Shown piece by piece: positions 19,092 to 61,375 of a DNA stretch of 64,000 bases (its first letter is position 1; every line of letters begins with the position of its first letter). The DNA is from a virus. Location of the stretch: positions 32,001 to 96,000 of the IMG/VR virus record IMGVR_UViG_3300032020_000845; one strand, written 5' to 3'. The notes below the pieces were generated by a model. The model made no database searches. It was given only the letters and a program-made list of their open reading frames with translations, and was not told the DNA's origin. The position numbers were made by a program, and so were the translations under genes.

Positions 19092-19096
19092 AAATT

Positions 19097-21923: not shown

Positions 21924-21940
21924 GTGTATATTATATTAAA
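21924..21940 (+). promoter_or_regulatory. putative promoter motif copy 2
   Basis: GTGTATATTATATTAAA just upstream of the AGGAGGT RBS. Confidence 0.5.
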
Positions 21941-21963
21941 CGTAAAGTTAAGGAGGTAAAGTT

Positions 21964-38626: not shown

Positions 38627-41530
38627 ATGTCACTTAATAGTGTTCGAAAATTATGCGGTGGAGAGATTCCAAGTTTTATGAAAAAAGCTTTAGTTACCTT
38701 AGCGTATAGAGAAAAAGTTACTTTTTTGAAAGAAAAAGGGGCTATGTTATTCACTGACAAGGGATTTACAAAAATCGGTTGGAATCTTTTTCGTAAAACG
38801 CAGGATCCTGACGCTGGGTCGATCTGGACTGTTACAGCTATTAAAAATGATAAAGGTGAAGAGGAAAAATGGCTCGTGGCTTATGTTGATGAAGATAATA
38901 ATGTGTTGCGAAAAGTGAAAGCTTCTATAAAGAAAACTGCACAAGAAGAACCTTTGAGATTTAGGCCAAGCAAAACATATTTTCTAACAAATGAAGATTT
39001 AGAAGAAATGGAAATAGAACCAAGAAAAGGAGTTAGATTTGAGACTGATAGACTTGAATTTATTTGGGGGACATATGAATTAGTAAGACAGAGTATTTCT
39101 CAGGATGGGTGGTGGGTAAAAGAAGTAAAACTTGGTCCTCCTTATGGAGAAACAGAAAAAGGTGCTTCCACAAAAATCTCTCACACTCCAGGAACAATTG
39201 TTCAAATAACTGTTCCTCACGGAAACCTTTATGAAAAATATAATGGTAAAATAGGAGAAGTAGTTGCTGCAGTTCCAGACCGTTCTAAAGTTAGTTTTAA
39301 AGATATGCCTCCTTTTTGGTTTGAAGATAATGTAATTAATCCAATTGTTCCTTGCCCTCTTTGTAATGCAAATGTTTCTTTACAAATGTTAAAAAAGGTT
39401 GGGAAAGTTAAGTGTAAATGTAATGCTTTTTATACTTGGAGACAATTAGAAAAGATTGCAAATAATGATAGAATAAATAAAGTTGCTGCTGAAAAAATAA
39501 AGAAAATTGCTGATACTACTACAATAGAGGAAATAGATTTAGGTGGAGGTAAAAAAATTACTGTCGATTATAATAATTTTGATAACATGTATAGAGCATT
39601 TCTTACAAATGAACAAGGAATAACTGAGTCTGCCGCTACTAGAAATACTAAAGATGAAATTTATGAATGGGTTGAAGAAAAGAAAACAGAACTTAAAAAA
39701 ACCTCTACAAAAACCGCTCGAATTGAAGAAAGAAAAGGTGAATATTGTGTAATAGCAGAATCTGGTAGAAGTATGGGATGTTACTCTACAAAACCAGAAG
39801 CTGAGAAAAGATTAGACCAAGTAGAAATGTTTAAACATATGAAAGGTAAGAAAGCTCAGTTAACTGAACAAGATCCTGATTATATTCCTGGATGTCCAGC
39901 ATGTGAAGAAGCTGTAAAATGTGGTCTCGATTTTGAAGAAACTCATTCAACAGGATTTCCTGGTTTTTTGCAATTAGAAGATCCAGATACAGGTAAAGAA
40001 AGACTTATTCCTAGTCCTCATTATACATATGAAGAAAGAAAAAGATTAAGAGGTAAGAAAGCATGGAAAGATTCTAAAGGGGAAGAGATCAGTGCTGGAG
40101 ATTTTGTTCTTTACGCCAGAGATCAAGGATATGACATAGACGCAATAGTTAGGGCAATCAACCAGAGTGGGAATGCCACACTAGAGTTTGACGATGGGAG
40201 AGTTATCTATGATGTTCCTGTGACAGGACTGGTTAAATCAGGATCGAAGAAGAAAGCACAAGAGGAACATAAATTATCGACGGAAGAAATTATGCAACTT
40301 TTAGAGAGTACTAATACAGGGGGTTATTTTTATGCAGATAATTGCCGAATAAATTATTCAAGTGTTTCTGGTTGGTATTGTAAAGATTTTATTGGTGGTG
40401 AAATGGATACTTATAATATTACGGAGGATGAAGCAAGAAGAAAAATAGAAGAAAGTCTAGGAGATGGGAAGTTTGCTTCTAAAACTGCTCAAAATGTTAT
40501 TATGTGGTTTGATAGTCCAAATGTTTTAAAAAGTTTAAAGCATTTACAAGGACCTCCAACAAGTCCTGCTACAGAAAAGCCTTTTGAAAAACCTGAAGAA
40601 GAAGGTGATGAGGATGAATTAGAACCTGAAGAAGAGGTTGAAAAAGAAGCTTCGAGGAAAACTGTAGCGGATCCTTTTACGAACAAAAGATTTAGAATAG
40701 TTAACTTAGATAAATTTAGTATGGGTGATTTTGATATAGAAGATGAAGAAGAATATGAAGAACTTTTAAGACATAATAATAAATATGCTCTTGTTACAGG
40801 TATTGCTATTTTAGGGTGGACTTTAGAAGAATATTATGTTGATGTACGCTTTGATGACGATTATATAATAACAGGCTTAAGTGTGTATCATTTAGAAGGA
40901 ATAAAAGAAGCATCAACAAAAACAGCTCAAACTAAATTTGAATTAGAAGAATTAGTAAAAAAATATCAAAAAGGTTTTCCAGATATTCCTGAAAGTGATA
41001 TTAGGGTAGGTATAAAATATGTATTAAAACAACACCCAAACAAAAATCCTGAAGATTTAGATGCGGAAATTGATGGAGAATTACAAGCTATCTATGAGGA
41101 TTTTTATAAACCAAGATTAGCTTCAATAGAAATAGTTGGTAAAAAAATTGAAAGTATTGTAAAAGAAGCAGATGGAATGGAAAGTTTAAGGGGTGGAGGA
41201 CAGGGAGGAGGTTCAAGTAAATTGGAACCAATGCAATGGAATGTGCAGGAATCAAAATATCCTCCTCTGCCTAAAGAAGAAGAAGAGGAAGGTAAAGAAG
41301 TTCCTGAAACGGAAGAAGTTGAAAAAATTATAGTAGAAATTGACCCGGAAAGTAAATCTGTTCACGTGAATTTTAAGGGAGAAAAAGAGGGAGAAAAAGA
41401 GGGAGAAGAAGAAGTAAAAACTAAAGAACCAACAGAAATTCCTAAAGGAGCTGAAGTTCCTCCTGAAACAAAAGAAAAAGAAACAGAAGAGGGAGAGGAA
41501 GTTACGCCGGAGTCGCCAGTCGTTTTTTGA
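38627..41530 (+). CDS. giant modular protein 1 with recurring AS..KTA/KKA linkers
   Basis: 967 aa, acidic; repeated basic linker motifs between small domains. Confidence 0.8.
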   Translation: MSLNSVRKLCGGEIPSFMKKALVTLAYREKVTFLKEKGAMLFTDKGFTKIGWNLFRKTQDPDAGSIWTVTAIKNDKGEEEKWLVAYVDEDNNVLRKVKASIKKTAQEEPLRFRPSKTYFLTNEDLEEMEIEPRKGVRFETDRLEFIWGTYELVRQSISQDGWWVKEVKLGPPYGETEKGASTKISHTPGTIVQITVPHGNLYEKYNGKIGEVVAAVPDRSKVSFKDMPPFWFEDNVINPIVPCPLCNANVSLQMLKKVGKVKCKCNAFYTWRQLEKIANNDRINKVAAEKIKKIADTTTIEEIDLGGGKKITVDYNNFDNMYRAFLTNEQGITESAATRNTKDEIYEWVEEKKTELKKTSTKTARIEERKGEYCVIAESGRSMGCYSTKPEAEKRLDQVEMFKHMKGKKAQLTEQDPDYIPGCPACEEAVKCGLDFEETHSTGFPGFLQLEDPDTGKERLIPSPHYTYEERKRLRGKKAWKDSKGEEISAGDFVLYARDQGYDIDAIVRAINQSGNATLEFDDGRVIYDVPVTGLVKSGSKKKAQEEHKLSTEEIMQLLESTNTGGYFYADNCRINYSSVSGWYCKDFIGGEMDTYNITEDEARRKIEESLGDGKFASKTAQNVIMWFDSPNVLKSLKHLQGPPTSPATEKPFEKPEEEGDEDELEPEEEVEKEASRKTVADPFTNKRFRIVNLDKFSMGDFDIEDEEEYEELLRHNNKYALVTGIAILGWTLEEYYVDVRFDDDYIITGLSVYHLEGIKEASTKTAQTKFELEELVKKYQKGFPDIPESDIRVGIKYVLKQHPNKNPEDLDAEIDGELQAIYEDFYKPRLASIEIVGKKIESIVKEADGMESLRGGGQGGGSSKLEPMQWNVQESKYPPLPKEEEEEGKEVPETEEVEKIIVEIDPESKSVHVNFKGEKEGEKEGEEEVKTKEPTEIPKGAEVPPETKEKETEEGEEVTPESPVVF

Positions 41531-41567
41531 AAATAATTAGAAAATAAAATTTAATTGGAGGTAAACA

Positions 41568-44500
41568 ATGTTAATTCCAAAAGAACCAGAAAAAAATAAA
41601 AAAACACACAAAAAGTGGTTTAAGGCAGAGAAGCTAAAAAAAGTTGCTAAGAAAGAATCGTTGCCTCAAGAAAAGGAAGACTTAATAAGAAAACATGGAC
41701 AATCAAATATGAAAGAAACTGTTCTTTCATACGCTTGCACAAATTGTAAACATTCCTTTAGTGCTAATAGTTTAAGAAAAGAAATTATTGAGTCTGCAAA
41801 AAAAGGAAGCACTCTTGTTTATTGCCCAAAATGTGGTCTATTTCTTGTTGCAGATCGTAAAACAAAGATTCCTTCTAAACTTGGTTCAAAAATAAACAGG
41901 AACGCTGATCTAACTGCTATATATCCCAATCAAGGAATAGTTCCAGGCTATGTGCCTAATACTTGGGTTGATCGTGCTTTACTTGAAAAAATTTGTCACG
42001 AACTAGGAAAATATGCCGAATCAGTAGGTATGTTTAATCCTCAATTAAAATTTCAAAGAGGCATTCGAGGAAAAGTTCGTGAAGGTTCTCCTCAAAATGT
42101 GAAATACGCGGAGTATACAATAGAGTCTGTGGATAATTATGATGTTAGATTTCGTGTTATTGCTACTGCTGGAATTACTCCTATCGGAAAAGTAATAATT
42201 TCTAATGTGTTTAGAACCTTGGACGGTAGAGAAATATCGTTCACACAAGAAGGAGTTGAAGGTTTTGTATCAGGTAAAGTTTATGGTTCTCCAGACGTTA
42301 AACCTGTTGTTCCTCAAATTTATTACAAAGAGCGTGATCCTTCGAGGTTTAGAGAAATAGTTGCTTCAAAGAAAACCGCTTTTGTGAAAGGTATTGATGA
42401 TATTCCTAATATGGAGTTTTCAGAAATGAAAAGAAAAGTTATGGAAAGGTTAAAACGAAAGTATCCAGAATTCAAAATTTCAGATCTTGATGCTTATTCA
42501 GATAATACTATTGACGGGATGAGAGATCATTGGACTGATTTTGGCAATCCTCGTATGACTGTTCAAGATTGGTTTGAAAATGTTGTGGATACGATCGATG
42601 CTGATTTAGAGGAGGAGGCTAGTCAGTTTATTACTAGAAAAAAAACAGCAGCAGGTGTTCCTATTCCTGGTCAACAAATTGAATATCAAGGAAAGATATA
42701 TACAGTTGATACTGTTGTTGGAGATACTTCTATATTAAAAGATGAAACAGGATTACAAACAGCTCCGGTTCCTAATTTAGAGTTAAATATTCAACAAGGA
42801 GGTTCTGGTTTAGCAGCTCCTGCTGCTCCTATTACAGCTCCAGTTGCTAAAAAGATTGAAGAAATTGTTAAAAGAGGATTAAGGGATGAAAAAACTTTAG
42901 TTCCATTTACTGAATCGGATCCTGATTATAGTGTTGCAAAACAAACTGATGTTGATCCAGATTTTAGTACTCCTTATGAGAAATCTGACCAAGGGATTCT
43001 TGAGGAAAAGGATAGAGCTGTTCAGCAAATGTTTAGAGGAGGAACTTCAGTAAGACCTACTAAATCTGCTGCAGAGATAAGATGGCAAAGAGTGAAGGAT
43101 GAGTTTTATGATACAGTAGAACAAGATACTGGTCCTTGGGTTTTGAAAACCCTTTCTCTTGAATCATATGTGGATGTACCAAAACATTGGCTAGATGCTT
43201 TGAGAAAAGATCCAGAAGGCCTTTCTCAAAATTTTGTTTCACATTGGGCTGAGAAACATAGTTATACGTTGCGAGACGATGAAAAACGAGAACTTCAAAA
43301 ATTATTTGTAGATTGGGTGTTTGAATTTGAGACTGAAAAAGAAGCTTCTCTAACCAAAACTGCTCCTGAAAAAGCTGACCTTGAAAGTATGGTTCAAAAA
43401 TGTATGAGAGACAAAGGATGGGAACATGCTAAGTGTATGAATTATGTTGCTGGAGGTGTTTGGCATAGAAAAGGGAAAGTAGATGGACTACATCCCGGAA
43501 TGCATGGCCACACAAAAGATGGCTATAAATTTGTTATTCTTGATGTTCAGGGAAATGAAATTCAAGTTGACCAAGAAAATATAAGTGGTTCTTTTTGGAC
43601 TGACCGAAATGAATGGGAAGGAAAAGAAAGTCCTCAATATGTTGAAAAATCATTGGAACCAGGAATGTATGGAAATACAAAAGATGGTTATAAATTTGTT
43701 ATTCTTGATGTTGAAGGAGATACAATTCAAGTTGACCAAGAAAATATAAGTGGTTCTTTTTGGATTGGTAGAAACGAGTGGGAGAAAAAAGAAGCTCCTC
43801 ACTATCTCCAATATGTTGGAAAACCATTGGAGGAGGAAGAGGGAGAAAAGGAAGCTTCAATAAAGAAAATAGCTGAACCAACAGGTTATCACGAAACGGA
43901 TGAAACAGGAAAACAAATTGAACTTTCTCGTTTAAGAACACTTGTTGAGGATTATTATAGAGCAGGACAATTTCCCCCAGATTTTGATTATACTAAAGTA
44001 ATGTCAGAGGTTTCTCGAATGACAAGAAAACAACTATTAGATATTCTTGACAAAAAACTTAAAGATACTCATTATCCTGTTGTTCATGCGAAGAAGAAAA
44101 CAGCTGTTAGAACAAATATGTTATGTGTTGATAGTGAAGGAGAAAAGATTCAGTTTAAAAAATTGGAAGATGTTTTTAATGATTTAGATGATAGATTTTT
44201 ATCAAATATATACGATGAATTGGAGTGGCTTCCTTTGGATTCGAGAAAACTTAAAGAGGTATTAAAACTACTTGGATATTCTCGTATTACTAATAATGAT
44301 ATACAACAGTTATTACAATGGATAAAAGAAGAATCTCCAGAATGGTTTATGACTCTTGAAGAATATAAAAAAGTAGCGGAAGGATTTATTCAAGAAAGTC
44401 TGAAAAAAGTTGCTTCAACAAAAACAGCAGCTACAGTAGATGAGATTAATGAGATTCTTCAAAAAAACTATGGAATAACTTTTTCTATATATAGTAGAAG

Positions 44501-45749: not shown

Positions 45750-45764
45750 ATAAGAGGAAAAATT

Positions 45765-45911
45765 ATGAAATGTCCAAAGTGTAATGTAGAACTACAGCAA
45801 TGTAAAAATGGAATTGTGGTAGGATCTTTAAAAGATGGTATAAAAATATCTCTTTGGGAATGCCTCAAGTGTGGTTATTTAAAGACCTTAAAAGAGAAGG
45901 TTAAGTTTTAA
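45765..45911 (+). CDS. 48-aa zinc-ribbon protein
   Basis: MKCPKC...WECLKCG; GAGG RBS. Confidence 0.55.
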   Translation: MKCPKCNVELQQCKNGIVVGSLKDGIKISLWECLKCGYLKTLKEKVKF

Positions 45912-45927
45912 TAACTTAGGAGACTAA

Positions 45928-46704: not shown

Positions 46705-46715
46705 AAGAGGAAAAA

Positions 46716-46946
46716 ATGGCTTTAATTATACCTCAAGGTAGAAATAAAGGATTGAGAAAAGAAGCGGTTATTATTGTCACTTCATTAGAAGATCCTTTTA
46801 ATTATGTTAAAATGAACGGCAAAACACCTCATTATTTTATGGAAGATCCTAAGGATACAGAAGTTCTTTATGTGAGTACAGAACCTTTTACATTATCTCA
46901 AGCGCGAAAAGCATATGAGGTAGAGTTTGGTGAAATTGGCGAATAA
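46716..46946 (+). CDS. hypothetical protein
   Basis: ORF with GAGG RBS. Confidence 0.55.
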   Translation: MALIIPQGRNKGLRKEAVIIVTSLEDPFNYVKMNGKTPHYFMEDPKDTEVLYVSTEPFTLSQARKAYEVEFGEIGE

Positions 46947-46949
46947 AGT

Positions 46950-49900
46950 ATGTCCTTTAAAGAAATCGTAGACGAAAAATATAAAGAAAAGTCAGAACTG
47001 ATTGCTCCTATGGAATCAGTTGATGCTTTAACTTTTGTTACCTCTCACAAATGGTTAGGAGAAAAACCATTTCCGTCTCAAAGTCTTATTTTAAAATTGT
47101 TATATGGATTGTGGAAAAAATACCCTATTATTGAGGAAGAACAGAAATTAATTGATACTTTAAAGACTGCGTGGAATATTAACATTGATTTAGAAAACAG
47201 AGATATAAATCAAGTTATTGAAGTTTTAATTCTTGTAATTGGCCGTAGAGGAAGTAAAAGTTCAGTTGTTTCTTGGATTGCATCATTTGAGGCTTATAAA
47301 CTTTTATGTAAAGGAAATCCACAAAAGTATTACAAAATAAGAGAAAGACACCCTATACATATTCTTAATTGTGCTTCTGATGGAGATCAAGCTAAAGAAA
47401 CGTTTAATCTTATAAAAGACAATATTAAGAAAATTGATTTTTTCCAAAAATATATAGATTTTGACAAAGACAACGAAACAGAAATGCGTTTATTCTCTCC
47501 ATATGATTTATTTTTAAATTCTCAAATACGTAGATATAATGAAACTCGGGGAAAAGGATCAATGAAAAAGAACCTATTGCGGGGTTCTATTTGTATTGAG
47601 TCTGTTACTACATCTGCTGCAACTAAAAGAGGAAAAGCAATCATTGGGTTAATTTTTGACGAATTTGCTCATTTTGGAAGATCTAAATATAGAAAAAGAA
47701 CTTTGGAAGTTATGGAAGCACCTCAAACTGATCATGCAATGTGGGTTGCTCTTACCCCTTCTGTAAAAGATTTTGGAAAAGACGGATTAATTATTGCAAT
47801 TAGTAGCCCTGCAGAAAAAGCTGGAGAATTTTATACTTTGTATTGTTTAGCTGGGGGAATGGAACAAAATGAAAGTGAAAAACTTCCACCGAATCCAAAA
47901 TATTTATTGTTACAGCTTTCGACTTGGCAAGCAAATCCAAGGTTTGTAAAAGAAGATTTTGTAGATGATTATAGTAAAGATCCTGTAAATGCTTCAATGG
48001 AATATGGAGCACATTTTGCAGAACCAGCAGCTTCATTTTTAAATCCTCAAAGAATTGACGATATGGTAGTTGAAGGAGCCCCAATTTTGTTACGGGGTAG
48101 GTCAGGACAATTGTATATTATTGTAGTTGATCCAGCGAGTACTAGTGATACTTATGCAATTGCTTGGGGGCATAGAGAAGATAGACCAACTGAAAAGTAT
48201 TGGATTGATGGTTTGAAGGGATTCGAACCTACAACGAAAAGATTAGGGGATGGAAGGATTATTATAGAACCAATTGACTCTGACATTGTAATGGATTTTC
48301 TTTTAACTTTAATTAGAAATTTAAATGTGATGGGAAAGCAGGTTATGGAAATTTGTTATGATCAATGGAATTGTAAGATAGGATCAGCTAAACTTTTTAC
48401 AAATGAAGGAATGAAAACAATTGAAGAATTGTGTAAAGAAAACAAGCCTATTTTAGTTGCAACAAAAGATGGTTTTGCAAAGGCTGAAAAATTTTATGAT
48501 AATGGTGTAAGATCTGTTGTAAAAATTCGAACTAAATTTGGTTATGAAGATGTGGGCACTAAAAATCATCCTTTTTGGACTAAAAAGGAATGGCAGTGTA
48601 TTGGAGATTTAAAAGTAGGAGATGAAGTAGCAATACAACCTTCTGCACTTTTTAATAAGTGCTCAACAATTTCTGTAAACAGAGCTATTATTTATGGGTA
48701 TTTAACATCTGAGGGGCAATGTTCTGGAAATAACACTATAATTGGATTTTCTAATATTGAAAAAGATATTCTTGATGATTATTGCTTTTTATTTGAACAA
48801 GAATTTGGAAAAGTTCCTCATAGAAGGCTTATTAATAAAAAATTTTATAAGACGAGGAAAGATTCAAGAGGGAACATTGTATTGGAGGATACTGCAGCCT
48901 TATGGTCAAAAGAGATTACTGAAGAATTACGAAAGCATGAAGTATTAGGGACGTCATTTACAAAACATGTGCCCAAACCTATTCGCGAAGGGTCAAAAGA
49001 AGTGTGTTGTGCTTATCTTTCTGCATTATTCGAAGGAGATGGAACAATTGGATTTTATCCACAAAAAAATACAAAATATGGACAAACAGATACTTATATT
49101 TGTTATGATTCTCGTTCTGAAGACCTTGTTAAAGATGTGCATTTAATTCTATTAAATTTGGGAATAATATCTTCGAGAATGACCGGCATACAAGTAGGAA
49201 AACCTGTACATAGAATAACAATTAGAGGAAAGAATATTGATAGATTTGCAGTTCTTATAGGTTTTCGTGGTAAACGAAAAAAAGCACGTTTAGAAAAAGT
49301 TTTAGATCATCGTAGGCCATTGAAGAAATTTAGAGTTAAATCTTATTTGGATAATGATAATATTTTTTGGGATAAGATTATCTCAATTGAAGAAATGCCT
49401 CCAGAAAGAGTATATGATATTACTGTTCCAGGAAAGCATTCTTTTGTTGTTAATGGATTTATTACTCATAATAGTATTGATAGTATTCGTACATTGAGAA
49501 AAATGAAATTACCCGCATTTGAAACAACTTTTACGAACCCATATAAAGGTGTTATATATGGGACCTTTTTAGAAAAATTAAATCAAGGACAAATGTGTTG
49601 CTATGAAATAGATCCTGATCCTGCTGAGAACTGGGTTGCTAAGTTAAAATTAGAATTAAAATATTTACAAAAGATAATAAGTGGGGGAACTACATATTAT
49701 GCAGCTCCAACAAGTGGTCCAGTTACCACAGATGATTTTGCAGATTGTTGTGCTAATTTAGTATACCGATTATCATCTCGTAAAGAAATGTCAAGCAAAA
49801 CTATTAGAGAATTACATAAGCAACTTGGATCTCCAATTCCATTAGGAAGAGTTATTAATCCTCAAAAAGGGGGCCCAATATGGGGGGGTAAGAAAAAAGA

Positions 49901-49952
49901 GGATATAAGAGACAGACTTCGAGGAATAGATTCAAAAAGAAGTTGGAGATAA
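46950..49952 (+). CDS. terL: terminase large subunit containing an intein
   Basis: Walker A GRRGSKS, Walker B LIFDEFAH, ISSP motif, nuclease motifs VVDPAS, YDQWN(S) and DDFAD. Confidence 0.9.
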   Translation: MSFKEIVDEKYKEKSELIAPMESVDALTFVTSHKWLGEKPFPSQSLILKLLYGLWKKYPIIEEEQKLIDTLKTAWNINIDLENRDINQVIEVLILVIGRRGSKSSVVSWIASFEAYKLLCKGNPQKYYKIRERHPIHILNCASDGDQAKETFNLIKDNIKKIDFFQKYIDFDKDNETEMRLFSPYDLFLNSQIRRYNETRGKGSMKKNLLRGSICIESVTTSAATKRGKAIIGLIFDEFAHFGRSKYRKRTLEVMEAPQTDHAMWVALTPSVKDFGKDGLIIAISSPAEKAGEFYTLYCLAGGMEQNESEKLPPNPKYLLLQLSTWQANPRFVKEDFVDDYSKDPVNASMEYGAHFAEPAASFLNPQRIDDMVVEGAPILLRGRSGQLYIIVVDPASTSDTYAIAWGHREDRPTEKYWIDGLKGFEPTTKRLGDGRIIIEPIDSDIVMDFLLTLIRNLNVMGKQVMEICYDQWNCKIGSAKLFTNEGMKTIEELCKENKPILVATKDGFAKAEKFYDNGVRSVVKIRTKFGYEDVGTKNHPFWTKKEWQCIGDLKVGDEVAIQPSALFNKCSTISVNRAIIYGYLTSEGQCSGNNTIIGFSNIEKDILDDYCFLFEQEFGKVPHRRLINKKFYKTRKDSRGNIVLEDTAALWSKEITEELRKHEVLGTSFTKHVPKPIREGSKEVCCAYLSALFEGDGTIGFYPQKNTKYGQTDTYICYDSRSEDLVKDVHLILLNLGIISSRMTGIQVGKPVHRITIRGKNIDRFAVLIGFRGKRKKARLEKVLDHRRPLKKFRVKSYLDNDNIFWDKIISIEEMPPERVYDITVPGKHSFVVNGFITHNSIDSIRTLRKMKLPAFETTFTNPYKGVIYGTFLEKLNQGQMCCYEIDPDPAENWVAKLKLELKYLQKIISGGTTYYAAPTSGPVTTDDFADCCANLVYRLSSRKEMSSKTIRELHKQLGSPIPLGRVINPQKGGPIWGGKKKEDIRDRLRGIDSKRSWR
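48372..49472 (+). mobile_element. 367-aa intein with LAGLIDADG homing endonuclease
   Basis: starts at Cys (CKIGSA), block B TKNHPF, GYLTSEG and SALFEGDG, ends VYDITV...NGFITHN followed by Ser. Confidence 0.95.
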
Positions 49953-49970
49953 AAATTGGAGAAATTATAA

Positions 49971-50384: not shown

Positions 50385-50416
50385 AAAAAACCTTTTAACG
50401 AAGTAAGGAGGAAGTC

Positions 50417-51106: not shown

Positions 51107-51313
51107 ATGACAAAAAATGATAAAATAGCCGAAATCAATGCTATTTTACAGCAGTTGGATGAAGAAGAGGTTTGCAACATTAAAGATATTTTAAAAGATA
51201 TGTATAGTTTTCCGTATGGACATATGTCTATTGATGTTCATAGTGGTCAAATAATAAATTGTAAATATACAAAGGAGAAGAGATTTTCTTTAAAGAAAAA
51301 GAAGGAGAACTAA
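51107..51313 (+). CDS. small DUF2292/YezD-like protein
   Basis: YGHMSIDVHSGQII. Confidence 0.45.
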   Translation: MTKNDKIAEINAILQQLDEEEVCNIKDILKDMYSFPYGHMSIDVHSGQIINCKYTKEKRFSLKKKKEN

Positions 51314-51317
51314 ATAA

Positions 51318-54300: not shown

Positions 54301-55757
54301 AACAAGAAGCTAAAGGTATTTATGATGAAGAATTACTGGATGAAATTATTTCAGGATTTTTAGTAACTTTAGAAAGTTGGGTTAATTTTGAAGAATACAA
54401 AATAAAGTATCTTTTGCAATATGTAACTGATGATAGTTATGATCTAATTAGAGAAGCAGAAGATTTAATTCAACCTTTACACTCAGCAACAACTCCACAA
54501 GAGAAAATGATTGCAATAGATACTGTAATAAATATTGTTCATCAAACGGGAAAATATGGAGAGTATTTGATAAAAGGAATAGACCCTGGAGATTTATCCT
54601 TTTTTGATGACCTAAGTAATTTGAAAGTTAGTAGTTTAAGTTTAAAAAGAATTGCTCAAATTACAGAAGTTAACATTGGAGATGAAGTAGAATTTGACAC
54701 TACTCGTTATTTTCGAGTTGGTAGAAGTAAACAAGGAGGAGTTTTAAAAGGTAAAGGAATTGTTAGAACGAAGAATGAGGATGGTTCATATGATATTGAG
54801 ATAACAGAAATAACTAATGCTCATATAGATATTGCTCATATATTTAAACCTGGGCGTACTACTCCCTTTTTGGTAGATGAAATAAAAGCATTTGTAAAAC
54901 CAAAATTTGAGCCTAAAAAAGAAATTCCAACTCCTGTCGAGGAGCCTAAAATTGAAAAACCTAAAGAAGTAAAAGTTGAACCAGAGAAAGTTCCTGTTGA
55001 AAAGCCTATTATTTTTGAGTTAGCAGAACCAGAAGAAGAAGAAATTCCAATACCTGTTGAAGAGTTTGGAGAACCTGAACCAAAAAAACTAAAGAAAAAA
55101 TTTCCAACTTGGAAAGAATTGGGGCAAATTGTTTGGGAGTCTTTTAAAAGACCTGTGACAAGACCTTTTGGTAGTATATTAAATATGAGAAAAGCTAATA
55201 AAATATCAGGCCGAAAACTCCTGTCTGTAGGCTTATGGGCTATTTATAATGGAGAGATATATAGTAAATTAGAAGATGTGAATAAATACGAGGGACATGA
55301 AAATTGGTTTGTAGAATTAGGTTTACCTGTGAAAGGAACAGAATACGATTATATTACTCGTGGTATTTATAGACCAGATAGAATAGTATGGTATGAAGGT
55401 ACTGGAACTTTTGAAGAATTTTCTGATAATATTGAAGAGTTAAGAAAAAAGTTAGAATTACCGGAGAATGTTAAAATTGAATCTGCCCCGGGTTTCTCAG
55501 AAATAAAAAAAGCTGAATTAGATATGAGAAAATCAGATATACAAAAAGATGTTCCTATTGAAAGTGCTTCTCCTATATTTAAACCTGAAGATACAATTAA
55601 GAATAAATCAATGGAAGAAGCTACATACAAAGTAATGGAATATGATCCAAAGGTTGATGAATATTTAATTGTTGGTGGTGTTAAAGATAGAATAATAAGA
55701 GTAGATCGAAAAACATTGGAAAATATTTGTGACTTAGTTGAGGGGGAGGGGAAATGA
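51318..55757 (+). CDS. giant modular protein 3 with recurring L-x-M-R-K-x-A linkers
   Basis: 1479 aa; about 11 linker motifs; repeated helical and WAIYNG modules. Confidence 0.82.
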   Translation: MIKLGSEPNWVFADLDLISELLVENNIPIEHPNYEKYKDYILGKFEGTWFVSPEEMEKAVLQYIPKTASLNFRKTAEPETLQENFYEPGKSDEYPKGPKKPRLRFPFYNYPDDQGNIINIKPDISNPMEYDTTPGPHPQGPGICGSLSMKKRAQSKGLLTYKKLTDIMMVVKDLQQVDSLDSDEVEDLAENLYNIFGNDILSGAILAAHEDKASRFIQMIGEYLALSTKIGLKPLTKELLESLIKVCQDPSNPKHQIKKVPLEDVFEPKKEEDEFEETEEEIGERWKEKEKQILPEKKELSPETMEVPYTFLRDKYTEDEIWDIARGRKTDVSPEEIEMAKFVIERGIVAGRLGMRKTSTTVSEPTPDESLHEQQGEHPGHTYFQGRDEWEDKEPDQGFDILFPEKVRIKRDPWLFEDNPVSEMTASRLNMRKKAYINLDNLKRLYEGQLKHLGVYDRELMEEVRTDLLVNLENLIKSTFKKYKGWEEEDIPADLEVIQEYVDGLKQSLKKDSDLMVMIDSTVNVIHHFFEDHGEHYLLSEIVNPRQIERAEELLATIFSQVSEKLEEKEEKPKPSIPKKVPFVDKRGNPLKINDIVFAKDEGYFGKYGRIVSVDPEPIYLSDLEKWTYSMYVETTVTEEMLATEVVLSNDIDKDSIAVEATNHILQLVKKKAFDVNSAFDVILDELYIVLDQEMIQKIKNNLYDEGIDIEKEAKKLLSVRKNNSTFQLSIRKKAIISPLQLKKLYELELLYRKGNFGIEEQLDKLSEYIVKELIEFLNDWLQFYIAEEGLNEEAKAATNRLESCKQELENAFDIDSKIVAIDTTINTMHVDYDVFEHLIMTFEEYAEREFRSNRKEIQKHYQVWDSLKTFLQEQGKLTERIFENRLNMRKIALDPLTQRELLQTGILFPSPEFIEKMNLKKEKDKEEQKDKYRSFQKPFELKHEKGLKETIRKNIEEQFIIPQQLKLRFDKFAQESPRTLGPQITKQKIRRLYEQEAKGIYDEELLDEIISGFLVTLESWVNFEEYKIKYLLQYVTDDSYDLIREAEDLIQPLHSATTPQEKMIAIDTVINIVHQTGKYGEYLIKGIDPGDLSFFDDLSNLKVSSLSLKRIAQITEVNIGDEVEFDTTRYFRVGRSKQGGVLKGKGIVRTKNEDGSYDIEITEITNAHIDIAHIFKPGRTTPFLVDEIKAFVKPKFEPKKEIPTPVEEPKIEKPKEVKVEPEKVPVEKPIIFELAEPEEEEIPIPVEEFGEPEPKKLKKKFPTWKELGQIVWESFKRPVTRPFGSILNMRKANKISGRKLLSVGLWAIYNGEIYSKLEDVNKYEGHENWFVELGLPVKGTEYDYITRGIYRPDRIVWYEGTGTFEEFSDNIEELRKKLELPENVKIESAPGFSEIKKAELDMRKSDIQKDVPIESASPIFKPEDTIKNKSMEEATYKVMEYDPKVDEYLIVGGVKDRIIRVDRKTLENICDLVEGEGK

Positions 55758-58700
55758 CTTTATTTATGAGAAAGAAAGCAGGGATTGAAACTCATGAATA
55801 TAGATTTAAACAATTTCACAACCATAAAATTCCAGCATATACTTTTATTGGATATCAAGAAATTCCTTCTGGTGGGAAAATGTTGATGTTTAATTGTAAT
55901 ATTTGTGAGAGTACCTTAATGTTATTTCCAGAAGAAGTTAAAGCTAATATAGATAGAATTTCTGGTTTGCTAGATGATTGGGAACAAGTTGTTAGTAACA
56001 TAAAAAAGGCTAATGAATTTACATCCATAGAAAAAGAATTTGTATTAAAATTTGTAAAAGAATTTGAAAGGATGAATGACGCTAAAGAAATTTATGAGGA
56101 ATTAGTTAGTGATACATTTATGTTTGAACTGACAAATCATTTGGAAGAGGATTTAGGCATTTCAAAAGAGGATAGCAATGATTTTGCTCTTGCTATTTAT
56201 AATCGATTATATTCGGATTATCGTGTATTTACAGAAGTTCCTTTTCAAAGTGTTGGAAGTTTAAGGTTTGAGAATATAAAGAAAAATATAGATAAAGTAA
56301 AAATTTCCACAAAATATAGAGGTCCTGTTGTATCAATTTTAGAAAGTATTGCTCCGGCAGTTTGGAGTGCTTCTGGTTTAAAAGAGGCAAAAGATATAAT
56401 TATAAGTACAGTTTCAGGTTCTCATATTGATGAAGATGATAAACAAAAGATTTTAAATAATGTTGATAAAATTAACAATTTATTAGAATTGCAAAAGTAT
56501 ATTGCAAACTCAATTTTGTTTTATGAAGGAATGGGGACAAAGTTAAGTATGCGAAAGAGATCTCAAATAGATAAACAACTATTTTTTGACTTTTATGGAG
56601 TATCTTTACTGTCAGATAATTACTTAGAACAAAATCCTTACGCAAAACAATATAGAAATATGATTGTACAAAGTATAAAAGATGTTTATGTTCCTCTGAT
56701 TACTAAAATGGTTTATAGTGAACTTAGAAAACATACTGATCGCATGTATAATTGGGAGGATTGGATAGAAGAATTTAATCTTAAAAATGTCAATAGTCTT
56801 ACTTTAGAACAACTAGCTCAAATATATAATGAAGGAGTCTGGGTAACAGAATATGGTGGTCCCTCTTGGGGGTCTATTGTTGAATCTCTAATTCAACTTA
56901 AAAATACTTCTGATACTAATCAACTCATAACTGTTATAGATCATATCAATGATATTGAACACAATACTGGTTTAATGTTTCACGATTTTCCGAAAGTCAA
57001 AAAGTGGTTTTCTGATGCTTTAGAAACTAAAGCTCAAGCAACTCCTGAACAACTTATACCTTATCTTTCTTCTGATTTACAAAAATTAGTTATAGAAGAT
57101 TTAAGATTAAAAGGAAAAGAAATTATATCTCCCGAAAAATATATTACAAGAGATGAAAAATTTGAACTTGCCCAAAATCCATCAACTCCTCCAGAAATCT
57201 TAGCTGAATTAGCAAAAGATAAAGATGAATTTGTTCGTATAAATGTTGCAGGAAATCCAGAAACACCTCCAGAAATCTTAGTAGAATTAGCGAAAGATAT
57301 AGATAAGTATGTTCGTATACGGGTGGCTTATAATCCCAATACCCCTCCCGAATCATTAGTGGAATTAGCTAAAGATGAAGATGAAGAGGTTCGTTTGTAT
57401 ATTAAAAGAAATCCTTCTACTCCTCCTGAAACTTTAGCAGAATTATCAAAAAATACATTAGAGTGGGAGCGTCCTGAAATAAAAGAAGAAGAAAGCTTTA
57501 ACTTAAGTATGAGAAAAACATCAATTTCGGACCAAGAAATTATTAACAATACTATTTTCTATTTCACAAAAGAAAGAATAGATTTACCGAAAACTGAAAC
57601 ATATATTTATGATTATCTTCTAAATCAACATCCAGAATTAAGTTCTTGGGAAATAGAAAGACTTACACAAAAAGTATTAAATATTTTACCCAAACCAGTT
57701 TTAACAAAAGTTCATAAAACAGCAAAAGTGTTTACTATGGGAACTCCAGATACTTTTGAATCTGGGTGGGCAATATATCAAGGAAACATTTATATAAATT
57801 ATGGTAGGGAGGAACACCATTCTCAATGGTTTGAAAAATTTGGTCTTCCTACTTCAGGAAAGGCTTTTGACGAGTTAGTTCGAGGGTATTCTGAAGGCGG
57901 AAGAATTGTTTGGTATGGAACTGGAGATTATAATGAGTTTGCAGATTATTTACCAGAATTAGTAAATGCTTTAGGAATATCAGATCCTACTATACAAATG
58001 ATTGATTATACAACACAAGAATTTAAAACTTTAGCAATGAAAAAGGAAACATCTATCCTCGATTACCCACATAAATATTTAGATTCTGAAATATGGGATT
58101 TGTCAACTGATCCTCCAAAACTAAAAAAAGATATTAAAAGTTTTATTATGAATCGTTTTATTGATTACTTGGTAAAAGAAGGATTAAATAGTCCAGAATT
58201 GTGGTGTAAGGAATTTTACTATACAGGGTCAACTGCTACACATCAATATCAAAAATCTTCTGATATAGATATTCATATAAGAGTCGATTGGGAAGCATAT
58301 AAAAAAACTAATCTAGATAAAGCAAAAGAAGATGCTGAAGAAATGCGTAAAGATTTGTTAAAAGTGTTTTGGAATACTTTAAACAAAGAATATCTACCTG
58401 GAACTTCACACCTTCTTACATATTATATATTGTCTGAATGGGAAGATGTAATGACACAAACGGAAGAAGCATATGATATACAAAAAGATGTTTGGATTGT
58501 TCCTCCTCAAAAAATACCTGAAACATATGACACAGAACAAAAAATAGATTTACTACAAGAACAAGCAAACTACATTATGGAAAAATTAGATGTGGAATTA
58601 GGTAAAACAAAAAGAGATTTTGTTGACTATAAGGTTTTAAAAGAGCTATTAGGTTCTTACGAAGGAAACAAAGCAGATATTCAAAGATTAGTAGAAGAAA

Positions 58701-61375
58701 AGTTAAAGAAAGTTGAACAAGATTTAAAACAATTACAAGAAGAGAATATAAAAATTCATGAAGAAAGGAACAAGGCTTTTTATGACGGTCAAGAACCGAT
58801 TGAAGAAGGATTAAGTAAAAACTGGACTCCGGGAAATATTATTTTTAAGTTAATTGAGAGATACAAATATATAGACATATTGAGAAAAATTAAGCAAATA
58901 ATTAAGGATGAAAAAATTACTGGGGAGGAAGAAAAAGAATTAGAAGATATTTTGGAACCGAAATTAAGTGCTGAATTATCAACACTTTGGGCAATTTATA
59001 ATGGTACTATTTATATTGGGAAACAACTTGGGCTTCTAACACATTCAACTTGGTTTGAAGAAATAGGTCTTCCAAGTAGTGGTTATGAATTTGATAAAGC
59101 TGCTCGCGGTTATTATCTTCCTGATCCAAATATTATTTATTGTTATGAAAATATTGAATCTTGGAATGAATTAATTGATAATTTACCTAAATTAGTAGAA
59201 AAATTGCAAGCAGATTTAAATACTTTAAAAATTTATTTTGCTAAAGAAAATGATATTCCAAGAGTACTTAAATACAAAGACCTTTTTGTAAATGCTTCAA
59301 AATTAAGTATGAAGAAAGCTAAAATTTTTCCAGGAGGTTTATGGGCTATTTATAATGGAAAGATATATACTACTGACGAAGAAGATGAGCATGATAAATG
59401 GTTCGAAGATATAGGGTTGCCTTCATATGGTGAAGAATATGATAGTATTACTCGGGGTGATTATGATTCAACAGGGATATTATGGAATTTTGATACTGGT
59501 ACTTTTGAAGAATTTTCAGATAATCTTCCGAAATTATTAAAAATATTGGGGTTACCTAGTACCACTAATGTTATGGTTCCAAAATTAAGTATGAGAAAAG
59601 AGACTTCAGTTCCAAATCTAATTCTTGAACAATTAGATTATCCTCATTCTTGGCCTCAAAAAAAGAGAGACGATAAAAAGGAGAAAGATGAATCTATTGG
59701 TTTTGGTATATTTCAAGGGGACTATGATGAACTTTATGATGTTCTTGATTCTATTAGGGAAGAAATTGCAAACAACTTATGTATGAGAAAGACAGCACAA
59801 GATATTTCTGATCCTAATAAATTATCAATACAAGAACTTAAACAATTCTATGAATTAGAATTACAAGGATTACTTACTAATGAATTTGTGGATAATGTTC
59901 TTACTAAACTAATTTATGGACTGCAAATAGAAAAAGAAAGAGTATCAAAAGATCCTGAAATTACGGGATATGTAAAAAAAGATTTTATAGCAATAGCGGA
60001 TTTTTATATTAATGAGTTAGAAAAGGTTGCTACAAAAAGTTTAAACAAAAAAATTATTGAAATTGATCAAACAATACAAGCATTACACTTATCTTATGGG
60101 TTTGGAGTATTTCAAGGCGATCCAGATGAAATTTGGGAAACCCTTGATTTTATTGGAGAAACAGTTTGGACTAAATCTAAACCTTTAGAGTCAAATATTA
60201 GTTTGAATATGAAAAAGACAGCTGATCTTTCTGCTGCTCCTGCAATTTCTGATATGGAAGTTCCTGAAAATTGGGGAGTGCAAGATAAAACAAATATAAA
60301 ATTAAGACGAAAGAATCCTCCGAGACATGACAAGAATGATTCAATTGTGGAACAGAATATAGTTGATCCTCATATTGATATGGCTTCATTAAATATGAGA
60401 AAGAAAATAGGTCAGGAAAAGGAAGAAGGAATTCTGCCAAAACCTCAAGTTACAAAACAAGACTTAATAAAATTATATACTCAAGAAGCAAAAGGTATTT
60501 ACGACGAAGAACTAATGAATGAAGTTATTTCAAAATTTATACAAACTTTAGAAGAATGTGAAGAATTTTGGGGTGCTTGGATGCAAAAATTCGGAAAGAC
60601 TTTAATTTTAACATTACTACAAGCAAGAACTCCTCAAGAAAAAATGATTGCAATAGATAGAGTAATAAGTACCGTTCATGTCGATGGTGTATTTGGAGAA
60701 TATTTAATAATAGATGTAATTGGTGATAATTCCTTTTTTGATGAATTGCATAATTTAAAAATTAGTTCTTTGAATTTTAGAAAAAAAGCAAAAGAAACTA
60801 ATCTTGACAAAATTGACGAATATCTTTTTGAATTACTTGATGAAGTAAGTGATGGAACAGGTAAAGAAGAAATTACAATTGACGGAGAAACTTACTTAAT
60901 TCATTATGAAGGATGGAGTTCAGGATGTTTTCCTGAAAATTTGCCAGAAAAAGAATGGGAAGATTATGCTGCTGAACAATCAAACAAAGTTATTGACGAG
61001 TGGAAAGAAGAAGAAAAAAATAGATGGGACATAATTCCAGAATTGTCTGGGTACATTAGTGGAGGATTATATGGAAGGACATATACAGTTTTTCATTTGA
61101 AAAATAAAAAAGCAAATGTATTTTATAATAGAGAGAAAAAGGGATTTGAAGGACAACCAACAGACAAAAATTATTACAGCCCTTCTTTACTTTTACGAGA
61201 AGATTATGGAACTCCTGGACTTCCTTCAGAACCGGCAAAAGCAGAAGTAGCTGATTTAGGAGAAGACCAATGGGGAGAAAGTAATAAACTAAAGAAGAAA
61301 AAACTTAAAGAGTTAGAATTTCCAGATTTTAATATTCCTTACGGAGTGGAAGGTGGCGACATAAAACAAATTTAG
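55754..61375 (+). CDS. giant modular protein 4 with L-x-M-R-K linkers, LRV/HEAT-like repeats and a Pol-beta-type nucleotidyltransferase domain
   Basis: 1873 aa; about 10 linkers; NPxTPPExLxELAKD repeats; YTGSTA...SDIDIH. Confidence 0.82.
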   Translation: MTLFMRKKAGIETHEYRFKQFHNHKIPAYTFIGYQEIPSGGKMLMFNCNICESTLMLFPEEVKANIDRISGLLDDWEQVVSNIKKANEFTSIEKEFVLKFVKEFERMNDAKEIYEELVSDTFMFELTNHLEEDLGISKEDSNDFALAIYNRLYSDYRVFTEVPFQSVGSLRFENIKKNIDKVKISTKYRGPVVSILESIAPAVWSASGLKEAKDIIISTVSGSHIDEDDKQKILNNVDKINNLLELQKYIANSILFYEGMGTKLSMRKRSQIDKQLFFDFYGVSLLSDNYLEQNPYAKQYRNMIVQSIKDVYVPLITKMVYSELRKHTDRMYNWEDWIEEFNLKNVNSLTLEQLAQIYNEGVWVTEYGGPSWGSIVESLIQLKNTSDTNQLITVIDHINDIEHNTGLMFHDFPKVKKWFSDALETKAQATPEQLIPYLSSDLQKLVIEDLRLKGKEIISPEKYITRDEKFELAQNPSTPPEILAELAKDKDEFVRINVAGNPETPPEILVELAKDIDKYVRIRVAYNPNTPPESLVELAKDEDEEVRLYIKRNPSTPPETLAELSKNTLEWERPEIKEEESFNLSMRKTSISDQEIINNTIFYFTKERIDLPKTETYIYDYLLNQHPELSSWEIERLTQKVLNILPKPVLTKVHKTAKVFTMGTPDTFESGWAIYQGNIYINYGREEHHSQWFEKFGLPTSGKAFDELVRGYSEGGRIVWYGTGDYNEFADYLPELVNALGISDPTIQMIDYTTQEFKTLAMKKETSILDYPHKYLDSEIWDLSTDPPKLKKDIKSFIMNRFIDYLVKEGLNSPELWCKEFYYTGSTATHQYQKSSDIDIHIRVDWEAYKKTNLDKAKEDAEEMRKDLLKVFWNTLNKEYLPGTSHLLTYYILSEWEDVMTQTEEAYDIQKDVWIVPPQKIPETYDTEQKIDLLQEQANYIMEKLDVELGKTKRDFVDYKVLKELLGSYEGNKADIQRLVEEKLKKVEQDLKQLQEENIKIHEERNKAFYDGQEPIEEGLSKNWTPGNIIFKLIERYKYIDILRKIKQIIKDEKITGEEEKELEDILEPKLSAELSTLWAIYNGTIYIGKQLGLLTHSTWFEEIGLPSSGYEFDKAARGYYLPDPNIIYCYENIESWNELIDNLPKLVEKLQADLNTLKIYFAKENDIPRVLKYKDLFVNASKLSMKKAKIFPGGLWAIYNGKIYTTDEEDEHDKWFEDIGLPSYGEEYDSITRGDYDSTGILWNFDTGTFEEFSDNLPKLLKILGLPSTTNVMVPKLSMRKETSVPNLILEQLDYPHSWPQKKRDDKKEKDESIGFGIFQGDYDELYDVLDSIREEIANNLCMRKTAQDISDPNKLSIQELKQFYELELQGLLTNEFVDNVLTKLIYGLQIEKERVSKDPEITGYVKKDFIAIADFYINELEKVATKSLNKKIIEIDQTIQALHLSYGFGVFQGDPDEIWETLDFIGETVWTKSKPLESNISLNMKKTADLSAAPAISDMEVPENWGVQDKTNIKLRRKNPPRHDKNDSIVEQNIVDPHIDMASLNMRKKIGQEKEEGILPKPQVTKQDLIKLYTQEAKGIYDEELMNEVISKFIQTLEECEEFWGAWMQKFGKTLILTLLQARTPQEKMIAIDRVISTVHVDGVFGEYLIIDVIGDNSFFDELHNLKISSLNFRKKAKETNLDKIDEYLFELLDEVSDGTGKEEITIDGETYLIHYEGWSSGCFPENLPEKEWEDYAAEQSNKVIDEWKEEEKNRWDIIPELSGYISGGLYGRTYTVFHLKNKKANVFYNREKKGFEGQPTDKNYYSPSLLLREDYGTPGLPSEPAKAEVADLGEDQWGESNKLKKKKLKELEFPDFNIPYGVEGGDIKQI
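57160..57450 (+). repeat. four ~24-aa LRV/HEAT-like repeats
   Basis: NPSTPPEILAELAKD, NPETPPEILVELAKD, NPNTPPESLVELAKD, NPSTPPETLAELSK. Confidence 0.88.

Follow-up and report, generated by a model that had tools for sequence, protein, structure and literature searches.

In bacteriophage T4, the internal proteins are packaged into the prohead and are trimmed before their injection, and a short N-terminal peptide with a P3-x-P1 cleavage motif is common to the core proteins, the scaffold and the capsid protein. The internal proteins of this phage, gpAlt, the prohead protease gp21 and the capsid targeting sequence have been reviewed (PMC9026906). In phiKZ, 201phi2-1 and SPN3US, inner-body or ejection proteins are cut by gp175/gp245 at a short consensus; a propeptide of these phages can have several cut sites, and cleavage extends to the portal and the capsid protein (PMC10052503, PMC5694885). 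The SPN3US protease gp245 cuts after A-X-E, and nearly all of its 14 mapped sites, which are distributed over nine proteins, correspond to the removal of an N-terminal propeptide (PMC10052503). Furthermore, polyvalent proteins have been described as giant multi-domain proteins encoded beside portal and terminase genes; packaging and delivery have been proposed for them, and their domains are rapidly shuffled (Iyer et al. 2017, PMC5512222).

The DNA analysed here (the window) is a stretch of 64,000 nucleotides from a large uncultured phage, positions 32,001 to 96,000 of the IMG/VR virus record IMGVR_UViG_3300032020_000845, and all coordinates below refer to it. The initial annotation had described four giant ORFs of 967, 1393, 1479 and 1873 aa around the terminase gene, and their coordinates confirmed this, all of them being on the plus strand. 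G1 (P0001, 38627..41530, 967 aa) and G2 (P0002, 41568..45749, 1393 aa) are located directly upstream of the terminase gene, and G3 (P0003, 51318..55757, 1479 aa) and G4 (P0004, 55754..61375, 1873 aa) downstream, which places the giants among head and packaging genes. The start of G4 shares 4 bases with the stop of G3. The large terminase subunit (46950..49952, plus strand) was recognized by the PHROG terminase families and carries an intein with a LAGLIDADG endonuclease (Pfam Intein_splicing and LAGLIDADG_3). Just 5' of it, a 76-aa ORF (46716..46946, plus strand) presents a linker-like L-R-K-E-A near its N-terminus, at residues 13-17. Beyond G4, a candidate alternative processing enzyme is encoded, the 302-aa trypsin-like serine protease P0043 (63089..63997, plus strand; Pfam Trypsin_2, E 6.9e-13).

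Concerning their composition, the four giants take up 17% of the coding capacity of the contig, and their net charge ranges from -47 (G1) to -96, the remaining proteome being approximately neutral. The giants had been described as chains of unrelated acidic domains. Their acidity was evident, but "unrelated" is only partly right, since several modules are paralogues that recur within and between G3 and G4. Scans with Pfam, PHROG and NCBIfam recognized only LRV repeats and a nucleotidyltransferase (NTP_transf_2) domain, both in G4, and a rubrerythrin-like segment at residues 1038-1102 of G2, so effector-like modules are few among the families scanned in the four giants. The giants of relatives include a sigma-factor-like module.

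The modules are separated by a linker with the core hydrophobic-[RK]-K-x-[AS], in which the [RK]-K pair is nearly invariant, and two dialects can be distinguished. Dialect A, present in G1 and G2, reads [E]-A-S-x-K-[KT]-A, and dialect B, present in G3 and G4, reads L-[NS]-[MF]-[RK]-K-x-[AS], with a full form of about eight residues, [S]-L-[NS]-[MF]-[RK]-K-x-[AS]. Taking the small residue of K-x-[AS] as the position of each site, G1 has nine sites of the K-[KT]-A type (residues 105, 295, 364, 410, 479, 544, 621, 681 and 767), and the sites of G2 are at residues 271, 361, 501 (weak), 599, 769, 846, 954, 1104 and 1179. Nine sites are found in G3 (76, 153, 359, 435, 735, 893, 1113, 1294 and 1407) and ten in G4 (9, 270, 590, 766, 1190, 1284, 1348, 1490, 1552 and 1679). 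About 37 were therefore counted across the four giants, in agreement with the roughly 40 of the initial annotation. A single ORF holds up to 10 sites here and 16 or more in relatives. The motif is also present at protein ends (start or end) in G4, whose first linker occupies residues 3-9 at the very start, and in P0016 and P0017. By analogy, these terminal copies fit an N-terminal targeting and cleavage peptide like the capsid targeting sequence of T4.

The comparison with the rest of the proteome made the observation stronger than first described. The giants (5712 aa) contain 18 copies of the pattern L-x-[MFIL]-[RK]-[KR], versus 3 in the other 28134 aa, and K-E-A-[ST] occurs 7 times versus none in the rest of the proteome, the overall enrichment of the linker motif being about 27-fold. 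The same specificity was found in the relative G001, of 168 kb. A matrix built from G3 and G4 gave 26 matches of at least 12 bits in this phage, all of them in the orthologous giants and four other proteins, with 0 in the approximately 190 remaining G001 proteins. In the distant members P0024 and P0034, the amino-acid motif is kept, the nucleotides have diverged and the dialects are mixed. Two further distant members, P0030 and P0033, likewise have variant linkers.

The linkers had been noted to fall at domain edges, and the comparison with relatives showed that modules are duplicated, shuffled, split and replaced with breakpoints on these sites. In an alignment of nine G2 orthologues, conserved blocks alternate with hypervariable cassettes, and the median distance between a block breakpoint and a linker is 7 aa (p about 1e-4). 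Half of the homology-block ends (50%) are within 12 aa of a linker, versus 17% (maximum 32%) for random sites; some domain boundaries have no linker. In G1, the regions conserved with the G001 orthologue are residues 3-295, which end at the linker at 295, and residues 839-916, with the middle replaced, and two of the G1 cassettes (357-421 and 773-835) are found again within the G2 orthologues of other phages. The modules of G3 match modules of P0005, P0018 and P0019 over their whole length, but not in the same order. Moreover, G3 and G4 form a single ORF in relatives (2405, 2830 and 3263 aa), and residues 1-80 of G4 align to internal parts of P0018 and P0019, which indicates that the gene split lies at a linker. 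A two-module piece of G4 is in turn a separate 518-aa gene in G001. These events of fusion, fission, shuffling and cassette exchange at linkers support the modules as the units of evolution, independent of each other as far as can be read from the alignments. An AlphaFold model of residues 1-1200 of G2 was poor (mean pLDDT 45) and usable solely as a confidence profile, in which each linker coincides with or adjoins a segment of pLDDT under 50, some linkers being drawn as helix.

The contig of this phage is about 55% complete and ends before the portal, protease-scaffold and capsid genes. For this reason, the evidence from head proteins was taken from G001, whose G2 orthologue is about 50% identical. 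The gene order in G001 is portal, P0016 (a giant of 1185 aa with linkers), a 297-aa protein, the protease-scaffold fusion P0015, a decoration-like protein and the capsid protein. The latter was detected through PHROGs, as the HK97 capsid Pfam family gave no match in the relatives. P0015, encoded at 6833-11167 of G001, in which the protease domain (the first 300 residues) is fused to a scaffold-like region, matched the PHROG head maturation protease (E 1e-10) and, by BLASTP, gp19 of phage G (E 6e-27); the AlphaFold model of its protease domain (pLDDT 42) was too poor to confirm the fold. Its orthologues present K-x-A sites flanking variable inserts.

When a combined matrix was run over approximately 70,000 sequence positions outside the motif-rich proteins of G001, the top three matches were a small protein adjacent to the terminase, the 297-aa head-region protein and the C-terminus of the portal. 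The best of these background matches is a 117-aa protein (G001:63490-63843) in a position equivalent to that of the 76-aa ORF described above. In the 297-aa protein, encoded upstream of the protease, residue 52 marks a strong site. The capsid protein carries F-R-K-E-A near its N-terminus, at residues 13-17, a modest match that is in the top 0.03% of positions and has about a 1% chance of arising in one protein; in relatives it is F-S-K-K-A or F-Q-K-T-A, and in a more distant relative it is missing. In G001, one short motif is thus restricted to the giants, the portal C-terminus, the 297-aa protein, the small protein adjacent to the terminase and the capsid N-terminus. The motif in the portal, a small head protein and the capsid N-terminus, together with the K-x-A sites of the protease-scaffold, has the signature of the prohead-protease substrates of T4 and phiKZ/SPN3US, as judged by comparing sequences.

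Regarding these data, the giants are most likely polyproteins, predicted to be cut by a phage protease. That they are head-internal and putatively cut at K-x-[AS] inside the prohead is a tentative reading, which we regard as plausible but somewhat short of probable. Under this reading, each giant would be a string of independently folding modules, each preceded by a signal of about eight residues, and would be co-assembled with the scaffold during prohead assembly. The head maturation protease, scaffold-fused in relatives and homologous to gp19 of phage G, would then cut at the linkers, the scissile bond most likely following the small residue of K-x-[AS] (P3-x-P1), and release dozens of acidic proteins of 6-40 kDa. 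Some of these products could leave the head, and others could stay and enter the host with the DNA. If the final units are the modules, the order of the genes, their fusion or fission and the replacement of cassettes at linkers would be nearly neutral, and this is proposed as the origin of the hypervariability of these loci.

The initial annotation had already proposed polyproteins that are loaded into the prohead and cut to deliver effectors. The polyprotein part of that proposal gained from the finding of one specific, conserved linker that bounds exchanged modules and marks the head proteins of a relative; the effector role of the modules did not, given the few effector-like matches, and proteins as acidic as these might just as well serve as disposable filler of the core. 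A more ambitious version, in which the linker is a joint capsid-targeting and cleavage signal, so that any domain between two linkers would be carried into the prohead, freed and injected with the DNA in a plug-and-play manner, is possible but doubtful. If it were true, about one sixth of the coding capacity of this clade would be devoted to an ever-changing set of dozens of pre-made early proteins, and new cassettes would be gained by recombination at linkers.

Cleavage could also take place elsewhere. The giants may be true polyproteins cut in the cytoplasm by P0043 or a host enzyme at the dibasic [RK]-K pair, which would suit a trypsin-like enzyme; head packaging would not be required, and the cutting would allow few transcripts to supply many small proteins in fixed amounts. 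This is the main rival reading, which we consider unlikely. The Trypsin_2 protease is encoded two genes past G4, and the order of giant, exonuclease (454 aa) and a gene of similar size (292 aa, a candidate protease orthologue by position) recurs in G001, but P0043 sits among DNA-metabolism genes and its specificity pocket is unreadable from its sequence. The complex predicted for residues 1-255 of P0043 with residues 408-452 of G3 gave a weak pass (median score 0.37, with 0.00 for the best of three controls; contact agreement of at least 83% and partner pLDDT of at least 42 across the runs). In the calibration of this tool, 51 of 78 solved complexes and 2 of 108 mismatched pairs attained the mark; with scores of 0.60 or under, this was the case for only 5 of the 78 solved complexes and for all 4 passing mismatches, so a pass of this kind is more often wrong than right. 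Moreover, cytoplasmic cutting leaves unexplained why the best matches outside the giants are the portal, the head-region protein and the capsid N-terminus, and why the giants are placed among head and packaging genes. On the other hand, the giants may not be cut at all. They could be beads on a string, in the virion or not, whose modules work tethered and whose basic linker binds DNA, the scaffold or the portal, or acts as a repeated targeting signal. A basic linker between acidic modules would suit this, as would the copies at the extreme N- and C-termini, which separate nothing, and large unprocessed virion proteins are known, such as the virion RNA polymerase of N4 (PMC5512222). Nevertheless, a binding role does not predict such free fusion, fission and reordering at linkers, nor single copies near the N-terminus of the capsid and small head proteins, a layout typical of removed propeptides. 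We consider the uncut state slightly less likely than cytoplasmic cutting.

The cassette exchange exactly at linkers could also be taken to mean that the linker is mainly a recombination joint at the DNA level, or a remnant of cassette capture, without function in the protein. The codons are informative here: in dialect B, Ser is AGT in 7/7 cases and Leu is TTR in 19/19, a uniformity greater than that predicted from the codon usage of the genome, whereas the K, R and A codons vary freely, which points to selection mainly at the protein level. The AGT bias can be attributed to the interchange of Asn and Ser by single transitions, and this counts against a DNA joint. The motif also outlasts nucleotide divergence in P0024 and P0034, where the dialects are mixed, which makes this reading improbable; a short joint may help shuffling and still be compatible with a function in the protein. 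As for the host, Staphylococcus phage 80alpha offers a precedent in the Prp cysteine protease, which recognizes MLxx(D/N)LQ(F/L)F'A(S/H)KK (PMC9405229), and the linkers could mimic the N-terminal extension of ribosomal protein L27 to be cut by this enzyme. The likeness is loose, consisting of L-N followed by a hydrophobic residue and of the A-S-K-K of dialect A; none of the linkers has the Q-[FL]-F core, and no Prp gene is present in either phage record. In addition, the bin of a Cloacimonadota MAG includes a relative, which hints only weakly at the host; in this MAG, which is incomplete, L27 has no N-terminal extension and no Prp was found. Host cleavage of this type is thus very improbable.

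Three other candidates were rejected. Translation starting internally, at the Met of dialect B, does not account for dialect A, which has no Met, nor for the replacement of Met by F, I or L, and there is no ribosome-binding pattern before the sites. Fused genes with leftover stop-start junctions would require a frameshift at every junction, as the TAA in TTA-AAT-ATG is out of frame, and the upstream residues are conserved as protein. An altered genetic code was discarded because the ORFs are open under table 11, also in independent metagenomes. Concerning the searches for similar proteins, tblastn of G3 against GenBank phages and G4 alone against IMG/VR gave no close relatives, although the G2 alignment and the capsid protein did retrieve loci. 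Neither the protease domain nor G2 or G4 retrieved anything of use from the sequences of the Protein Data Bank, and in the ESM Atlas the first G2 module led nowhere, with scores below 0.8. No account of such a system was found in a literature search on phage polyproteins with repeated linkers.

Should the linkers act as signals for cleavage and targeting, tailed phages would have their first case of true multi-product polyproteins, and with it a natural, modular way of loading many different proteins into a capsid. The signal would be compact and readable, and could be adopted to package foreign proteins in phage heads. For the uncharacterised head maturation protease of the phage G type, the specificity would then be K-x-[AS], unlike that of the Glu-specific enzymes of T4 and phiKZ, and the hypervariable cassettes would provide a list of candidates for phage proteins that act early. 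Even without delivery, breakpoints that coincide exactly with a motif of 7-8 residues are a clear example of how giant phage proteins are constructed.

Outside the phages, the structural polyproteins pp220 and pp62 of African swine fever virus are cut at G-G-X by pS273R, and nematode polyprotein allergens are made as precursors of tandem modules. These allergen precursors are cut at basic linkers (PMC3079579). Both cases resemble the locus in that one ORF would give several mature proteins (of the particle interior in the viral case) through a repeated short protease site. However, they have been proven by experiment, their modules are fixed and they have no sequence or evolutionary relation with the giants, whose modules are hypervariable. 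Closer in sequence is Bacillus phage G, whose capsid protein gp27 is 40% identical to that of G001 and whose gp19 is homologous to the protease domain, and in which gp20 and gp21 present K-K-T-A near an end. In that phage, the protease is a separate gene of 300 aa and gp27 has no N-terminal extension; the 40 kb examined contained no linker-rich giant ORFs, and the accessible phage G literature reports no cleavage sites. The polyvalent proteins share with the giants the many domains per polypeptide, the position beside terminase genes (beside the portal gene in the relative) and the mosaic evolution. Their hallmark domains (MuF, ParB, methylases, ARTs and zincin-like MPTase) were not found in the four giants with Pfam, PHROG and NCBIfam. 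Moreover, no repeated linker has been described in polyvalent proteins (the word "linker" does not appear in PMC5512222), and their processing is thought to occur via embedded peptidases.

The proposed cut at K-x-[AS] would have the same P3-x-P1 geometry as [LI]-x-E in T4 and A-x-E in SPN3US. In T4, the substrates are single proteins with one signal each, whereas up to 10 signals are found here in one ORF and the motif is basic; the protease of G001 also differs from gp21, being of the phage G gp19 type and fused to the scaffold. Like the present one, phiKZ and SPN3US are large phages, and their many head-internal proteins are cut at a short consensus, as is proposed for the giants. Compared with SPN3US, approximately 37 sites are concentrated here in only four proteins, spread along their full length between modules, with turnover of cassettes at the sites themselves.

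The four giant ORFs of the initial annotation were all found on the + strand with the sizes already reported: G1 (38627-41530, 967 aa), G2 (41568-45749, 1393 aa), G3 (51318-55757, 1479 aa) and G4 (55754-61375, 1873 aa). G1/G2 and G3/G4 flank the large terminase gene, whose coding sequence is interrupted by an intein that contains a LAGLIDADG homing endonuclease (46950-49952). The giants sum to 5712 of the ~33,850 contig residues (17%) and are strongly acidic (net charge -47 to -96), the remaining proteome being near neutral. In family searches of G1-G4, the only matches were a rubrerythrin-like stretch of G2 and, within G4, LRV repeats plus a nucleotidyltransferase domain. The contig (106,979 bp, completeness ~55% by CheckV, all genes on the + strand) starts at a baseplate wedge gene, so most virion genes must lie off it. 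Just upstream of G1, a 471-aa AAA+ ATPase (36680-38095; Pfam AAA plus lid domain) could be an unfoldase or assembly chaperone, although nothing tying it to the giants was found. Elsewhere, a family A DNA polymerase with an N-terminally fused uracil-DNA-glycosylase-superfamily domain was found at 19097-21613, and a run of ~20 ORFs of 300-420 aa each precedes the window (G000:C1:5650-28045); the two that were scanned (5650-6900 and 7657-8817) are glycosyltransferases.

The repeated linker was borne out by reading the translations and by pattern counts, with ~37 sites where roughly 40 had been claimed. For L-x-[MFIL]-[RK]-[KR], 18 copies fall in the giants and 3 in the other 28,134 residues (3.15 vs 0.11 per 1000 aa), and for K-E-A-[ST] 7 copies fall in the giants and none elsewhere in the proteome; the motif is thus enriched over the other proteins of the genome. 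Its dialect in G3 and G4 (dialect B) is L-[NS]-[MF]-[RK]-K-x-[AS], and that in G1 and G2 (dialect A) is [E]-A-S-x-K-[KT]-A or a bare [KR]-K-K-T-A. Aligned, they share a core of a hydrophobic residue, [RK], K, x and a small residue, and distant family members such as P0034 mix both within a single protein. Codon choice at the linker K, R and A varies, which indicates that conservation acts on the protein. The Ser codon is AGT in 7 of 7 cases and the Leu codon TTA or TTG in 19 of 19, a uniformity mostly attributable to Asn/Ser interchange by single transitions and codon bias.

Searches of 5.8 billion proteins gave one relative for G3 (P0005, 2405 aa) and nine for G2. A profile-free scan of G3 residues 1-1200 against 1.84 billion cluster representatives gave just 28 matches, which points to a small clade. 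For one relative the whole genome record was available, the IMG/VR record G001 (168,267 bp, completeness ~90%). A position matrix built from the G3/G4 sites of the window only was scanned against all G001 proteins, with 26 matches of at least 12 bits: 15 in a 3263-aa protein equivalent to G3 and G4 fused, 5 in a 1185-aa giant beside the portal gene (P0016), 3 in a 518-aa protein, and a single match in each of the G2 orthologue, a 297-aa protein and a 117-aa protein. None reached this threshold in the ~190 other G001 proteins. With the dialect-A matrix, matches were confined to the portal and the orthologues of G1 and G2.

Judged from the alignments, the modules between linkers are units of evolution. 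When G3, G4 and P0005 are split at linkers, many pieces align end to end in a changed order, with duplications and, in places, linker loss that fuses two pieces. The alignment of ten G2 sequences shows hypervariable cassettes between five conserved blocks, whose breakpoints lie 1, 4, 3, 7, 1, 12 and 1 residues from a linker; over all G2 breakpoints the median distance is 7 residues, reached by random placement in 1 of 10,000 trials. Similarly, 50% of the homology-block ends between G3/G4 and three relatives fall within 12 residues of a linker or protein end, against 17% for random sites (maximum 32% over 2000 trials). Module gain and loss in orthologues coincide with linkers beyond random expectation. 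Between G1 and its G001 orthologue, similarity is confined to the region preceding the linker at residue 295 and to a C-terminal piece, and two G1 cassettes reappear within G2 orthologues of other phages. G3 and G4 form a single ORF in three relatives, and their split in the window genome falls at a linker. Moreover, a two-module stretch of G4 is the separate 518-aa gene of G001, which begins with a short leader and the motif. The claim that linkers mark domain edges is supported by these breakpoints and block ends, but some internal domain boundaries carry no linker. A repeated helical module ends just before many dialect-B linkers; in the distant proteins P0039 and P0042 it is followed, without a linker, by ~200 further residues.

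The predicted structure agreed in part. In the AlphaFold model of G2 residues 1-1200 (eleven sequences), 9 of 9 linkers lie within or at the edge of segments with pLDDT below 50, and two short dips, at 589-599 and 952-955, fall exactly on linkers within helical regions that otherwise score better. However, the model is poor (mean pLDDT 45, 63% of residues below 50), so the profile is mild support only. The protease-domain model (pLDDT 42) was unusable.

The link to head assembly comes from G001 rather than from the window. Its head genes follow the order portal (with a putative intein), P0016, a sigma factor, a peptide deformylase (L007:13184-13696), the 297-aa protein (strong linker at residue 52), a 1444-aa protein, a 168-aa protein and the major capsid protein. 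At its N-terminus, the 1444-aa protein matches a PHROG head maturation protease family and shows homology to gp19 of phage G (BLASTP E 6e-27), annotated as head maturation protease in a 2025 paper; the rest is coiled-coil-like, suggesting a protease-scaffold fusion. K-x-A type sites are found in this protein and in its four orthologues at a density of 7-10 per 1000 residues, and several of the sites flank variable inserts. Furthermore, a combined 7-residue matrix was scored on ~70,000 windows drawn from both genomes with their motif-rich proteins left out. Its three top matches in this background were the 117-aa protein by the terminase, the 297-aa protein of the head region and the C-terminus of the portal. 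The capsid N-terminus (F-R-K-E-A, residues 13-17) falls in the top 0.03% of this background. Relatives have F-S-K-K-A and F-Q-K-T-A there, and the site is absent from a more distant capsid protein, whose N-terminus is also shorter. In the window, a 76-aa ORF just upstream of the terminase has L-R-K-E-A at residues 13-17.

Other features of the G001 head region were also observed. The intein matches of the portal gene (18996-22196) are weak (Intein_splicing E 1.6e-4, below the Pfam cutoff), several HNH endonuclease genes lie among the head genes, and the gene at 24950-25699 resembles, by eye, a methionine aminopeptidase. The modules of P0016 (L007:15322-18879, - strand) include LRV repeats and, at residues ~735-945, a linker-bounded segment weakly like an ECF/SigY-type sigma factor (NCBIfam E 4.5e-5, below cutoff), also present in P0027. 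Its release would yield a pre-made sigma factor.

As to the enzyme, the main rival to the prohead protease is P0043, the trypsin-like (Trypsin_2) protease encoded two genes after G4 (63089-63997, + strand). G001 repeats the order giant, exonuclease and gene of similar size, and the [RK]-K pair would be a fitting target for a protease of this type. It was kept as main rival because one complex prediction, of its residues 1-255 with G3 residues 408-452, gave weak support: the median score was 0.37 (best of three controls 0.00). In the calibration, 51 of 78 solved complexes attained the mark, as did 2 of 108 mismatched pairs; passing scores of 0.60 or below came from only 5 of these solved complexes and from all 4 mismatches that passed. 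The runs shared at least 83% of contacts, with a partner pLDDT of at least 42. Cleavage by host Prp is unlikely, since the published L27 site (PMC9405229) is unmatched by the linkers and no Prp gene is present in either phage record. A G2 orthologue (54% identity) lies on contig JAGMCF010000133.1, binned in a Candidatus Cloacimonadota MAG; this MAG, the sole and weak hint of a host, has a short L27 and no detected Prp.

The linker-punctuated giants are thus confirmed and extend to relatives, and a polyprotein with cleavage is their best explanation. From the sequences analyzed, it is fairly likely that they are cut in some way; that the prohead protease does so within the head is proposed tentatively, and delivery of the pieces as putative effectors is a plausible hypothesis. 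In T4, phiKZ and SPN3US, the hallmark of the prohead protease is a motif common to internal proteins, scaffold, portal and capsid protein. SPN3US gp245 cleaves after A-X-E (P3-P2-P1; 14 sites mapped in nine proteins, PMC10052503), and the K-x-[AS] linker has the same geometry. The G001 capsid protein and gp27 of phage G share 40% identity. In Bacillus phage G (NC_023719.1, 16840-19728), R-L-K-K-T-A lies at residues 7-12 of gp20 and I-K-K-T-A near the C-terminal third of gp21, beside the gp19 protease, and this K-K-T-A may be the ancestral cleavage motif of the gp19-type protease family. A linker-punctuated system of this kind was not found described in the literature search; the giants are best classed as putative prohead-protease-processed internal proteins, their novelty with respect to these known systems being the polyprotein scale and the cassette turnover.
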